From Eledone cirrhosa (taxonomy: Eukaryota): 64,000 nt of DNA. A program made the position numbers and the translations under genes. The notes under the pieces are model-generated. The model searched no databases and was not told the DNA's origin. It saw only the letters and a program-made list of their open reading frames with translations. The stretch is from positions 37,262,001-37,326,000 of the forward strand of contig OZ024754.1 in NCBI GenBank assembly GCA_964016885.1, read 5' to 3'. Below, one piece after another: positions 6,555 through 52,498 of the stretch; the stretch's first letter is position 1, and each line of letters begins with the position of its first letter.

Positions 6555-6739
6555 GGAAAATGTTCAAGAGTTCAAGCCGTTTCGACAGCTATTTCTGGAC
6601 TCCAGAAATAACCGTCGAAACGGCTTGAACTCTGCCGTCGGGGTCTTGCACATTTTCCTATTACCCACTCTACTACCTTAAGTATTGAGTACTCTGATGC
6701 GTTATGGTCCACCTGGTTCCTTACCACACTTCCTTCGTT
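6555..6739 (+). mobile_element. Family A foldback element in (TA)n, copy 1 of 7
   Basis: Terminal hairpin plus shared body cctattacccactctactacc.taagtattgagtact...ggtccacctggttccttaccac. Confidence 0.8.
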
Positions 6740-7232
6740 ATATATATATATATATAAGAGACGTAAAATAAGAAAATTATAAAATTAACTTACTTACTAA
6801 AATATCACTTCCAACTAATTAGTTTCTGGAATGGAGTAAATATTTTCCGAAGAATAATATAGAGAAGCATTCCGTCGTCAGGAAAGTCTATTCTCATGTA
6901 AGTTTCCAGGCAAAGCGAGGCCACTGGAAACTTATTAAAAAATAATTCATTGAACCACACTGTTATTAAGACAAAACCTATATATTTGCTAACATTGATA
7001 TGCATCTGTATGTATATATATGTTACTAGATATGAATTCTTTATTATATATATATATATATATATATATATATATATATATATATATATATATATATATA
7101 TATATATATACTATCCAATCAAGGGGCCTTCTCTCTCCTGTTGGAGGAACCCCAATTTTGGTTATATCAGGGGTGTAGCCGTACACACACACACACACAC
7201 ACACACACACATATATATATATATATATATAT

Positions 7233-7380
7233 GAAAAGACTCAGGACCCCGACAGCTGAGCTCTGAACGTGTCGAAACGGCCGGAGCTCAGTCGTCGGGG
7301 TCCCTAATCTTTTCATATTACCCACTCTACTACCCCAAGTATCGATTACTCACGCGCGTTATGGTCCACCCTATTTGATT
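7233..7380 (+). mobile_element. Family A foldback element, copy 2
   Basis: Same body; hairpin ggaccccgac...gtcggggtcc; TA flanks. Confidence 0.8.
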
Positions 7381-7852
7381 ATATATATATATATATATAT
7401 ATATATATATATATATATATATATATATATATATATATATATATATGATAATAATGATGGCTGCGCGTTGCAAATGGTGGTGCATATGAAAAAGTAAGTC
7501 CTTCATCAGTGACCCTCCAACCGTCCCAGGCATTTCATCGCTTTAAGGGCCATATGCCTCAGGTTGGTGCGAACAACGGCTAAAAAAAGTCGTTGGGACA
7601 CGTAAATAAAGGGGACGTTAGGGTAACAAACAAAATGGTTTAAGCAACGGAAAGTGAGAAGAAATAGACAAGTCCCAGATCTCTATGAATATAAACTCGG
7701 TGAATTTCGTTTCTGAATTTGTTTAGCAAGATTCTTTATCTGAAAACGTGTGTTGAAACCGATATTGTTATACTTTGGGAGGGTCATGTTGCCAATAAGA
7801 AACATTTCCGGTTGGTTGGTTGGTTCCACAACCGGACGGTTGTACATATATT

Positions 7853-7895
7853 GTCAAAGTTCTTTCGTCACACATTCTGTGACATCTTCAGTGAC
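7853..7895 (-). ncRNA. Minimal type I hammerhead ribozyme motif
   Basis: GUCA-CUGAAGA-U-GUCACA GAAUG UGUGAC-GAAA-GAAC-UU/UGAC. Confidence 0.75.
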
Positions 7896-8032
7896 TGGGA
7901 ATTCTTTTCTTTGTTTTGTGCCTCTCCTTTGTTCTGTCCCACGCCATCTTGTTTTTGTGTGTGTGTGTATATATATATATATATATATATATATATATAT
8001 ATATATATATATATATCTTATATATATATATA

Positions 8033-8222
8033 GGAGTAAGTAAGACCCCGACGGCTGAGCTCAAGCCGTTTCGACGGCTAATTCTGTACTAATTAGCCGT
8101 CGAAACGGCTTGAGCTCAGCCGTCGGGGTCTTACTTACTCCTATTACCCACTCTACTACCCTAAGTATTGAGTACTTTGGTGCGTTATGGTCCACCTGGT
8201 TCCTTACCACTTTTCCCTCGTT
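8033..8222 (+). mobile_element. Family A foldback element, copy 3
   Basis: Perfect ~50-bp arms 8033-8083 / 8089-8141 followed by the shared body. Confidence 0.85.
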
Positions 8223-8356
8223 ATATATATATATATATATATCTTATATATATAAGTGGAAGCTTAGTAAAATGGAAGCTTTGGCTGCGGCAAAGAAAAA
8301 TCGACCTACAATTAGGAATGAGTAGCAAAGCACTCAATAAGGGTTGGTCCTTAGAG

Positions 8357-8546
8357 TAATTGTTTCTACTTTAGGCACAAGGCCAGCAATTACCCAGTGC
8401 ATAACTGGTACTTTATTTTATCGACCCTGTAAGGATCAAAGGCAAAGTCAACCTCGGCGGGATTTGAACTCAGATCGTAAAGGTACGTAACTCTATGCTG
8501 GAAAGCACGGCGTCCGACCTTCTACCGATACTGCCAATCCACCGCC
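8357..8546 (-). mobile_element. Major tRNA-derived SINE family (roughly 25 copies or fragments in the window)
   Basis: Consensus ggcggtggattggcagtatcggtaga...gagttcaaatcccgccgaggttaactttgcctttcatccttacggggtcgataaaataaagtaccag...aaagtagaaacaatta; TSD-like cttagagtaat/ctcagagtaat. Confidence 0.9.
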
Positions 8547-8656
8547 CTCAGAGTAATAATATACGTTTAGCTAGCTTGACAAATTGAAAATTGCGGCAGG
8601 CAAAACCCAGTCATACAATACCAAATATATATATATATATATATATATATATATAT

Positions 8657-49064: not shown

Positions 49065-49207
49065 TATATCCAGTGTATTACTGGTACATTGTTTTATCGA
49101 CCCCGTAAGGATGAAAGCCAAAGTTAACTCAGAATGGCAAGGGCCGTAACTCTATGCGTCGCGTCAAAACATGGCGTCCGACCCTCTACCGATACTGCCA
49201 AGCCACC
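49065..49207 (-). mobile_element. Internally deleted major SINE copy
   Basis: Consensus match with a gap across the B box. Confidence 0.8.
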
Positions 49208-50267
49208 ATAATTATATTTTTATATAATAATATAAATAAGATAAGGGCAATAATATATGCTACCCGATTACCAGTAAGAAAAGTAGCTCAATGTAAAATA
49301 TCAAGTATAATACAGAGCAGAAATACAACATGAATAACAATGAAATTGTGTTTAAAACATGTTTTAAACACAATTTAATTGTTATTTATGTTATATATAT
49401 ATATATATATATATATATATATAGTATAAAAGAGAAAACACAGGTAAGCATTAAGAGAAGGATTTAATCCAGGTATTTACGACCGTTTCATTGGTAAGTG
49501 CAACCTTATATTGCTATACTGCAAATAGCAGCCACTCAATTATAATTGTTGTTCACAGTCCAAATTTTCAAAATAGTGAGTTACTCTTGAAATAATTCTT
49601 AATATATAGAGAAAAACATTGGATCACAATAAGCAATTTTTTGCTTCTCTAACTATATATATATATATATATATATAATAAAATATAGAGAAAAATACTG
49701 CAGGTAGCACATGGATAACATGTAATAAAATGAGTCCCTCATCAGTGATTTGCCGAAGATCATAGATATTTCATTGCATTAAAAATCATATACCTCACTT
49801 CGGTGCAATAATAACCAAAATAAGTTATTAGGACAATTAAAACGCGTAAAGCGAGTGAGACAGGAGAACAACAGAGTAAGGCTAACCAGGGGAAAGAAAC
49901 AAGCTTCAAAATTATTCTGTTTAGCATAAGCTAGGTGAATATATGAGCGCTTTTAGAACAGACAATACACGAGCGAAGGCTATGAGCGGAGAGAGAAAAA
50001 TAGCTCTCGTGGTGTACAGGATGAAATGAAGAGAAGAGAGAGAAAAGTGAGTGAGTGAAAGTGTGAGGAAGAGTTAACTGACATGACAGAGGGGGAGAAA
50101 CAGAGAGAATGGGGGAACAGTAAGAGAGAGAGAAAAAAACACAGAATCGCAGTGGTAAATATATGTATATATATAATAAATGTATATATATAATGTATAT
50201 ATATAATAAATATATATATATATATATAATAAATATATATATATATATATATATATATATATATATA

Positions 50268-50420
50268 CCGTATTTCCTGGCATCGAAGACGCTACTTTTT
50301 CCCTAAAATAAGTCTAAAAAATCTACCATTCGTCCTGGAGGCCGAAGGCTGTTTATTATTTTGTTTCAAATTTAGGGTGCGTCCTCGAGGACGAAGCGTC
50401 TCCCGCGCCGGGAAATACGG
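50268..50420. mobile_element. Tc1/mariner (pogo-like) MITE
   Basis: TIR ccgtatttcctggc / gccgggaaatacgg with TA on both sides. Confidence 0.85.
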
Positions 50421-50689
50421 TATATATGTTTCAGTGTGGTTTCGTTCACAGTTAATTAGATATAGGACCAGGAAAAAAAGTAGAAAGAAAAAGGTATTTC
50501 ATTGTAAAAATACATCTAGAAACATTTTTGAGGTGGTTTCGACAGTGAGTGTTCCAGTTGATTCAATCAACAGAGTAGCCTGTTCATTGAAACTAACGTG
50601 TAAGTGGCTGAGCATCCTGCAGAGAGGTGTAGTCTTAATGTAGTTCTCAGGAAGATTCAGCATGACGCAGCATGTGACAAGAATGGCTT

Positions 50690-51098
50690 TTTGAATTACA
50701 GGTACAATTCATTTTTGTTAACTGAGTGGACTGGAGCAACATTAAATAAAGTGTCTTGCTCAAGGACACAACAGGCCACCAGGAATCAAACTCGCAACCT
50801 TACGATGGTTAGCCAAACACCTTAACCTCTAAGCCAGCCATAGGCAATCTGCGGCCCGCGAAGCTTTTTGAATGGCTCGCCTAAGTTACCTAAGTGAAAT
50901 CTTTCTGGATTTTTACCCCTACTTTTCCGTCGCAATTTATCTGAAGAAACAAATCAAAATAACCTGAGGTACCACCCTTTTTTTTTTAATGTGGGCCCGA
51001 ATGTAAATTAGGGCTTGCGGCCCGCCCGATAATGAGCCATATCTCACGCGGCCCGCTTCTCGAAAAAGGTAGCTCATATCTGCTCTAACCTATGCGCC
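50690..51098 (-). mobile_element. CORE-type SINE split at its A box by a MITE
   Basis: aaagtgtcttgctcaaggacacaac CORE on minus; head resumes at 51083. Confidence 0.7.
50835..51082. mobile_element. hAT-type MITE
   Basis: CAG...CTG ends; 8-bp TSD ctctaagc / ctctaacc; homologous to the 45230 element. Confidence 0.85.
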
Positions 51099-51657
51099 CA
51101 TATACAAAATGTAACAAAAAGAAAAAAATGTTTTCATACGGTCAGGGGAAGTATTGACTGTTTATAAAGATGTAGGTTGTTTCATTTGATAGAAGTAAAT
51201 ATTTTAAGGTTTGGCATGTATTTGTGGTTGTCAAGTATACGTTACAAAACTAGGTTGCTGTATTCTATTTGTCAAAAGTTGTATAACGTGAGATCTTGAT
51301 TGGCTCTGAAGCACTCATATAAAATACAGTATGTCTTCAGAAAAGACTTCTACAAAAATATACTTTGAACATTAGAATAAAACCTTATGAAAATAACTAT
51401 TTCATCCTGTTTTGATTGACGCTGTTTTATATGAAAGGAGACAAATTAAAAGCAGTAGACTATTGTTAAACTTTGAATACTGTTACAGTTTTTAAAAGAC
51501 TGGAAAGGAAAGAGTATGGAAACAATACGTCATAGGTGTAGGTAAGGTATTTTATGAGAAAACACCTACTTATTCAATGTCATGATTTCTCTTTGGTCTC
51601 CTTTTAGGATGGGTCAAAATGAATTCAACGAGAAATAAGTGAAAATGTTTTTCTAGT

Positions 51658-52171
51658 GATATATATATATATGTGTGTGTGTGTGTGTGTATCTATATAT
51701 ATATATGTATATATCTATATATATATGTATATATATATATGTATATATCTATATATATGTATATAAATATATGTATATATCTATATATATGTATATAAAT
51801 ATATGTATATAAATATATGTATATAAATATATGTATATAAATATATGTATATATGTATATATATATATATATATATATATATAAATATATGTATATATAT
51901 ATATATATATAAATATATGTATATATATATATATATATATATAAATATATGTATATATATATATATATATATAAATATATGTATATATATATATATATAA
52001 ATATATGTATATATATATATATATATATATATATATATATATATAAATATATGTATATATATATATATAGATATATATATATATATATATATATAAATAT
52101 ATGTATATATATATATATAGATATATATATATATATATATATATAAATATATGTATATATATATATATATA
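51658..52171. repeat. (TA)n tract
   Basis: Direct reading. Confidence 0.95.
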
Positions 52172-52290
52172 CTAAAACAAATTAATGCCTTTCTCATTAC
52201 TTATAAATAAAAGTTCATCGATTTATGACACAGGAACATAGGGTTACAAAAAAGTCACACACATATATATATATATATATATATATATAT

Positions 52291-52498
52291 AACGAAGGAA
52301 ATGTGGTGAGGAACCAGCTGGACCACAACGCACCAAAGTACTCAATACTTAGGGTAGTAGAGTGGGTAATAGGAACGAGTAGGACCCCGACGGTTGAGCT
52401 CAAGCCGTTTCGACGGCTAATTCTGGACTAATTCTGATTTAATCCAGAATTAGCCGTCGAAACAGCTTGAGCTCAGCCGTCGGGGTCCTACTCGTTCC
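52291..52498 (-). mobile_element. Family A foldback element, copy 7 (longest hairpin)
   Basis: Arms 52370-52427 / 52443-52500. Confidence 0.85.

Follow-up and report, generated by a model that had tools for sequence, protein, structure and literature searches.

Inverted pseudo-long terminal repeats (pLTRs), a tail, a bias towards (TA)n targets and 3' hammerhead ribozymes are already known for Penelope-like elements (PLEs). The closest known kind to the sequences described here is the Hydra clade of PLEs, which combine an inverted pLTR with a tail, target (TA)n and carry 3' hammerheads with a stem III of 3-4 bp (PMC8557442). A further model is Poseidon of the green anole (Frangieh et al. 2024, PMC11167929), where the purified protein cuts and extends both target strands, reverse transcription starts at two fixed RNA sites bounding the tail, and uncleaved RNA serves as the template. 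The available part of that paper is silent on how an inverted arm is formed, and the papers of 2021 and 2024 both call the origin of the inverted ends and the one-sided tail of PLEs open (PMC8557442, PMC11167929). Here we consider a repeat, family A, present in seven copies in a 64,000-nt stretch of the Eledone cirrhosa contig OZ024754.1 (hereafter the window). We consider it probable that these copies are 3' remnants of a likely Penelope-like retroelement, formed by twin priming with stalling at helices and subsequent joining of the two cDNAs.

Family A departs from the described systems in several measures. Its stem III has 5-6 bp with a 7-nt loop, as against 3-4 bp in the Hydra clade, and its probable stem II is about 56 nt long; cores split by 35-50 nt were marked 'half core' by Craig et al. 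(PMC8557442). The internal start site lies 20 nt past the predicted cut and has 3 nt in common with the target. The Penelope elements of Adineta vaga (Arkhipova et al. 2013, PMC3846280) resemble family A in the head-to-head inverted pLTR, the tail and the palindromes at the inverted junction; these junctions have been read as self-priming on an antisense template, whereas the arm reach in family A, given below, argues against self-priming of one molecule as the general route. Non-LTR retrozymes (bioRxiv 10.64898/2026.07.22.740005) are, like family A, short PLE-related units around a type I hammerhead, but they are described as tandem units with complete ribozymes, whereas family A copies are single, dispersed, inverted and devoid of the 5' core, and hence are not retrozymes in that sense.

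Read with the tail last, all seven copies consist of an inverted short arm followed by a tail-bearing long arm. Positions within the element are counted from the C of GUC, taken as 0 (window position 8124); GGGGUC then occupies +1 to +6 and is followed by the variable segment, with +20 as the last position of CCTAT and +97 as that of the tail. The copies and the landmarks of copy 3 are the following.

6553-6739, + strand: copy 1 (6555); inverted short arm at 6553-6601 with a deletion inside it, long arm at 6601-6739, one shared nt
7231-7378, + strand: copy 2 (7233), diverged; junction near 7270 at AGCCGT homology, long arm reaching further, tail cut to 60 nt
8030-8221, + strand: copy 3 (8033); short arm 8030-8092, long arm 8091-8221, 2 nt shared, short arm extending about 7 nt beyond the long one
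8101-8130, + strand: 3' half of what is likely a type I hammerhead, as present in copy 3; it comprises C-GAAA, stem III, GUC (with the predicted cut following 8124) and GGGGUC
8140-8144, + strand: CCTAT, the fixed outer end of the short arm; putative second start site of reverse transcription, 20 nt past the predicted cut
8145-8221, + strand: unpaired 77-nt tail; its 3' end is the putative first start site of reverse transcription, 97 nt past the predicted cut
8010-8024, + strand: left copy of the target-site duplication, a TA run interrupted by TCT
8236-8250, + strand: right copy of the target-site duplication, a TA run interrupted by TCT
24358-24540, - strand: copy 4 (24357); junction near 24496, long arm reaching further
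34424-34542, + strand: copy 5 (34428), diverged; junction with a 3-nt CGA overlap near 34436, long arm reaching further, short arm cut by (CA)n
38257-38391, - strand: copy 6 (38256); junction at the 6-bp stem III, loop oriented as the short arm
52292-52501, - strand: copy 7 (52291); short arm reaching 7-9 nt past the long arm and holding the element's own hairpin

A first-pass annotation, made from the sequence alone, had described seven copies that keep the 3' half of a hammerhead and lack CUGANGA, with a common cctat end running into (TA)n, and these observations hold. All seven copies keep C-GAAA, stem III, GUC and GGGGUC-like sequence, and none has a CTGANGA inside the element or placed to serve it, the matches within 150 nt lying only in the flanks or in a neighbouring family. 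The short arm starts at +20, with C(C/A)TA(T), and borders (TA)n in six of the seven copies, the exception being 34428 with its (CA)n cut; at the tail end, (TA)n is found in all seven. The tail is present on one end only in every copy, is 74-78 nt long in the five full copies and shows an identity of 0.88 among them. Another statement of the annotation, that the segment next to ggggtc matches between the arms of a copy and differs between copies, is borne out by the means (0.93 within a copy, 6 pairs, versus 0.64 between copies, 36 pairs) but not by copy 7233 (0.69). This segment of 9-11 nt before the internal start site (8131-8139 and equivalents) is much more variable between subfamilies than the tail. 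Over longer stretches the arms of one copy agree at 54/54 (8033), 56/58 (52291) and 26/27 (38256) positions.

Of the 283 TA arrays of the window, only those at 8010 and 8236, which flank copy 8033, have the TA run interrupted by TCT. This amounts to a target duplication of at least 15 bp, in line with target-primed insertion; such a duplication is discernible in one of the seven copies. Two small features were also noted in TA arrays close to family A copies: at 6480-6552, flanked by a family B copy and by copy 1 of family A, there are three tandem TA runs ending in CTG, possibly a repeated target duplication, and at 24100-24114 there is a lone 15-nt piece equal to the 3' end of copy 24357, which may be a very short insertion or a local duplication.

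BLAST with a single arm as the query returned the seven copies and no other place in the window, and upstream motifs taken from the reads revealed no further window copy above chance. Outside the window family A is abundant: 18,189 contigs (run X1) and 25,426 reads (run X16) aligned to one copy, compared with just 2 and 3 contigs in two other organisms. The summed contig depth across the TA flank was 0.78 million at the short-arm end and 0.56 million at the tail end; since these depths are similar, most copies likely bear the short arm at the fixed site. An assembly artefact as the source of the anatomy was rejected, as the arms carry point changes and deletions and the reads of an independent run show the same anatomy.

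The two outer ends are fixed, while the junctions between the arms are not: no two of the seven are alike, and all are asymmetric, with either 1-6 nt common to both arms or a few additional letters. By arm reach, taken by hand from alignments, the short arm extends to -40 and the long arm begins at -38 in copy 6555 (1 nt shared); the respective positions are -42 and -33 in copy 8033 (2 nt shared). In copy 52291 the short arm reaches -51 or -53 and the long arm -42, and in copy 24357 the long arm reaches -41 and the short arm begins at -35. The arms of copy 38256 are joined via stem III, with the loop in the orientation of the short arm, and in copies 34428 and 7233 the long arm goes further, with 3 nt and about 6 nt shared, respectively. 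Overall, of the two arms it is the short one that extends further upstream in four of the seven copies (6555, 8033, 38256, 52291). Copies 38256 and 52291 have a common variable segment but different junctions; thus, the inversion is made anew at each insertion.

The joints found in reads show the same variety. We considered the 15 best supported of 72 and the 12 best supported of 69 reported joints, dropped eight with unknown fill and one go-back, and used 12 forward joints. In six of them the long arm begins within the tail, so that the arms do not overlap at all; in the other six it begins at 8128-8143, next to the internal site, which is the signature of the first cDNA halting near the second primer. 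The short-arm end falls within 8084-8091 in nine of the 12 joints (P about 3e-5 if the ends were spread evenly over 43 places, for joints chosen by the tool), and this clustering holds with or without an overlapping partner arm. A pile of read ends at 8083 and 8091 in run X16 was set aside, these being AATT sites and likely restriction ends of a RAD (restriction site-associated DNA) library. In four window copies six of the eight arm ends lie at -33 to -42 (seven if the long arm of 52291 is counted), and the three other junctions exploit homology from stem III and its repeat. The helix region of family A has 60% G+C, compared with 29-44% in five neighbouring families whose cores are read through. 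Stalling of cDNA at the helix is the simplest reading of this clustering. As one read piece passes the zone by 36 nt, while two halt before it, the stop at the helix is not absolute.

Taken together, the copies have two fixed outer ends, one arm of each kind, asymmetric joins, a target duplication and clustered arm ends. In the mechanism that we propose, an endonuclease would cut both strands of the (TA)n target; one target 3' end would prime reverse transcription at the RNA's 3' end, and the other at a fixed internal UAU 77 nt upstream. Both cDNAs would stall at GC-rich helices that lie immediately 5' of GAAA and are probably part of a long hammerhead stem II; the two cDNAs would then be joined through short homology, through 6-7 nt of homology from stem III, or by a template jump. 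Both arms were probably copied from one RNA, which would account for the private variants that the arms share. Loss of CUGANGA would be a by-product of stalling before it is reached.

In twin priming of L1 elements the second priming site is opportunistic and the arms do not overlap, whereas in family A this site is fixed, almost all copies are inverted, and overlaps of 20-60 nt between the arms are frequent. The common part is that two cDNAs arise from both target strands and are joined at microhomology, producing in L1 a 5' inversion (Ostertag and Kazazian 2001, via PMC10760644).

Families B, C, D, E and F, neighbours with a hammerhead core that also lie in (TA)n, represent at least five further Penelope-like 3'-end families with tails of 67-103 nt and serve as comparators. 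Their sites in the window, and the three copies with two arms, are as follows.

5401-5690, 6358-6479, 24150-24283, 27127-27245, 32288-32611: comparator-family sites, cores in (TA)n
34569-34686, 38077-38240, 39794-39912, 48862-49020, 8657-8785: further comparator-family sites, cores in (TA)n
5401-5690, + strand: family E; inverted arm running through an intact hammerhead core, about 23 nt past the long arm; 86-nt tail
6358-6479, + strand: family B; inverted arm joined to the tail, arms without overlap
32288-32611, + strand: family C; inverted arm exceeding the long arm by about 100 nt, core intact; tail of 103 nt

The neighbours share the inverted anatomy, without a palindrome. In all three two-armed comparators (5401, 6358 and 32288) the short arm is the further-reaching one (by about 23 nt, entirely, and by about 100 nt, respectively), and the core is kept. 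Copies 24150, 48862 and 38077 (families C, E and F) have a single arm that ends 50-53 nt past the cut and is tail-less, and copies 34569, 27127 and 39903 (families B and D) end at the tail without an inversion. Thus, each start site can serve alone. In all ten two-armed copies of the window there is one arm of each kind. A full-hammerhead descriptor found seven sites (0.03 in Markov controls), yet three cores recognizable by eye escaped it, and hence it does not give a census. A tail motif common to the families was also considered and was not significant.

The hairpin drawn earlier as stem II requires a separate comment. An inverted arm always pairs with its partner, and therefore a long hairpin is no evidence for a prior helix; the 'stem II' as first drawn is mostly the two arms of the inversion. 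The element's own sequence can be followed in the reads for at least 36 nt past the junctions. Loose ends behind 8092 were seen in run X1 (62 contigs) and in run X4 (127 nt loose), with a further 144-nt loose end in X4; run X16 yielded a 36-letter upstream piece from 19 reads, and a loose consensus of 2238 X16 reads matches the X4 piece at 18 of 30 places (hand count). In copy 52291 the element has a hairpin of its own, at which most arms end:

52428-52453, + strand: 8-nt loop on a stem of at most 9 bp; element positions -53 to -28, immediately 5' of GUC-GAAA

The fold of 52428-52460 has -9.3 kcal/mol (z -4.2), and its upstream letters are matched by reads. By inspection of the 36-letter piece, GGCTATTT could pair with AAATAGCC of older copies, giving 9 bp, and the last letter of the piece is a G in position to pair with the C before GAAA, an arrangement also seen in families E and F; this partner and closing G come from one piece (the 19 reads), partly supported by the loose ends in two other runs. 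Inspection thus suggests a candidate stem II of about 56 nt, similar to that of families E and F.

The first-pass annotation explained the inversion by a single cDNA that snaps back on a ribozyme hairpin. Here, a tail-primed cDNA (or antisense RNA) would fold on a helix, prime itself and stop at CCTAT, the TAT of which pairs with the target; the loop would subsequently be flipped or trimmed by template switching. The junctions do lie at helices and three of the seven copies fit directly; snap-back cDNA junctions have been documented for R2 protein insertions (PMC11371274), and self-priming has been proposed for Penelope elements (PMC3846280). However, a cDNA folded on itself has no template beyond its own sequence, so that the short arm could extend no further upstream than the tail-bearing one, whereas it does go further in four of the seven copies and in all three comparators. 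Moreover, half of the 12 read joints lack arm overlap, leaving nothing to fold back on or flip between, and the tail-less single arms that end at the internal site in three other families are left unaccounted for. As the general route snap-back is largely refuted by the non-overlapping copies, and overall we regard this explanation as unlikely. The associated claim that the apex lies at the ribozyme helices survives in part: arm ends cluster at the helix 5' of GAAA or use the homology of stem III, but the junctions are asymmetric, without symmetric apices, and the stem II on which some apices were placed is the inversion itself. Likewise, truncation does remove CUGANGA, but its loss would be incidental and not an inactivation by inversion, since the inverted arms of neighbouring families keep the core. 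Another possible source of the anatomy is a fixed palindromic non-autonomous master, either resembling a miniature inverted-repeat transposable element (MITE) or a retrozyme-like unit with a long stem I perfected by quasi-palindrome correction, that spreads as such, the variety of junctions resulting from post-insertion deletion at the palindrome centre. A longer palindrome that lost sequence between short direct repeats could have given rise to each of the copies 7233, 34428 and 38256, and the variable segment co-varies between the arms, as it would in subfamily masters. On the other hand, the junctions differ in seven of seven copies, even between two members of one subfamily; the joints reported in reads number 72; un-inverted upstream sequence is present in reads of three runs; and the neighbouring families show the same anatomy without a palindrome. 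The tail lies outside the inverted repeats, which hence do not bound the element, and the target duplication is at least 15 bp. The combination typical of a MITE, terminal inverted repeats at both ends with a fixed internal structure, is not what these copies have, and we consider such a master quite improbable. Terminal hairpins of the DIRS-like, Helitron-like and parvovirus-like kinds were considered and dropped, as there was no matching feature.

Twin priming could also operate without a ribozyme, if GAAA, the stem and GUC were a chance hairpin and the arms stalled at ordinary GC-rich structure. In agreement with this, CUGANGA is found neither in the seven copies nor in the 36 upstream letters, and there is no hammerhead among the 36 Rfam matches on copy 52291; among the 150 of 370 Rfam matches listed for the window, nearly all are microsatellite hairpins. 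Folded by itself, the long arm is no more stable than its shuffles (z -0.46), stem III shows no compensatory change, the listed variants being mostly C>T and G>A, and GACCCC in the copies belongs to the inverted arm and is not an independent strand of stem I. Against a chance hairpin, the sequence has C11.1-GAAA, a stem III with A15.1-U16.1 and an NUH triplet, and the strict half-hammerhead occurs in only 33 of 20000 dinucleotide shuffles of the long arm; the same half motif arises about 1.4 times per 55 kb of background, so that it is suggestive but short of proof. The spacings are also close to those of the neighbours: the distances from the predicted cut are 20 nt (internal site) and 97 nt (3' end), compared with 18-19 and 86 nt in family B and 89-91 nt to the end in family D. 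In addition, the 36 read letters offer the 9-bp partner and the closing G for C-GAAA, as in families E and F. From these features we predict with considerable confidence that family A carries a ribozyme, and find its absence from an otherwise similar process very unlikely.

Several points weigh against twin priming of a Penelope-like RNA as the origin of family A. The main caveat is that post-insertion deletion or a loop flip can imitate asymmetry in single copies, and copies 7233, 24357 and 34428 (three of seven) fit snap-back just as well. Overlapping arms copied from one RNA would need strand displacement or a second RNA. PLE tails in print have 30-40 nt, compared with 77 nt in family A, and the start sites of the purified PLE have no target homology, whereas in family A 3 nt match the target. 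The likeness of the family A tail to those of its neighbours is weak (best P 0.04, uncorrected, in one of six comparisons). CUGANGA did not turn up, the longest upstream piece (36 letters) stopping where it would begin, and a Pfam search of 128 window frames gave no relevant match, with neither a reverse transcriptase nor a GIY-YIG domain tied to family A.

With these reservations, twin priming may be stated in a broader form, for which we see about even chances. The inverted pLTR and tail of PLEs would be the product of routine, programmed twin priming, with one ribonucleoprotein acting on two target strands and using two fixed sites of one RNA; the ribozyme helices would be the stop that sets the junction; and family A would be a hammerhead with a long stem II, missed by standard descriptors and capable of being switched off by AGCCGU/ACGGCU pairing across GAAA. 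If twin priming is true, it helps explain how Penelope-like elements gain inverted ends. Which arm reaches further upstream is a simple rule for separating self-priming from twin priming, and the host genome, with very many short natural insertions of at least four families, is a natural dataset for the PLE mechanism. We found no literature that applies twin priming to PLEs or ties their junctions to ribozyme helices, although most subscription papers were outside the search and such a proposal may be in print.

Relatives of family A were sought elsewhere. Metagenome scans gave no matches and then 11 chance 18-mers, none being a true relative; there was one chance match among viral contigs, and three bacterial matches among genome contigs were set down uninspected. 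A non-exhaustive short-motif search, made on wrapped lines, of the available part of the Hydra/Naiad consensus set of Craig 2021 gave no family A match save a chance 12-mer in an algal element. A loose family A tail motif resembles Hydra-2_Amil by eye only.

Some minor observations concern ribozyme-like sequences and the rest of the window. At 8095-8110 (+ strand) AGCCGU before GAAA repeats the 3' strand of stem III, and ACGGCU could pair upstream, placing GAAA in a 4-nt loop, possibly an off state. At 18340-18415 (- strand), outside a TA array, CTGATGA and GAAA lie about 40 nt apart, which is possibly another long-stem hammerhead. The window has 34% G+C and is dense in microsatellites, and no gene was identified in it; its repeats appear similar to the ones in an octopus genome. 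Three related fragments (42655-43128, 38490-39022 and 46621-47199), without a Pfam match, resemble the C-terminal part of a non-LTR element, with its restriction-like endonuclease. Finally, 62190-64000 is occupied by a tandem array with a unit of about 49 nt that is open in two frames.

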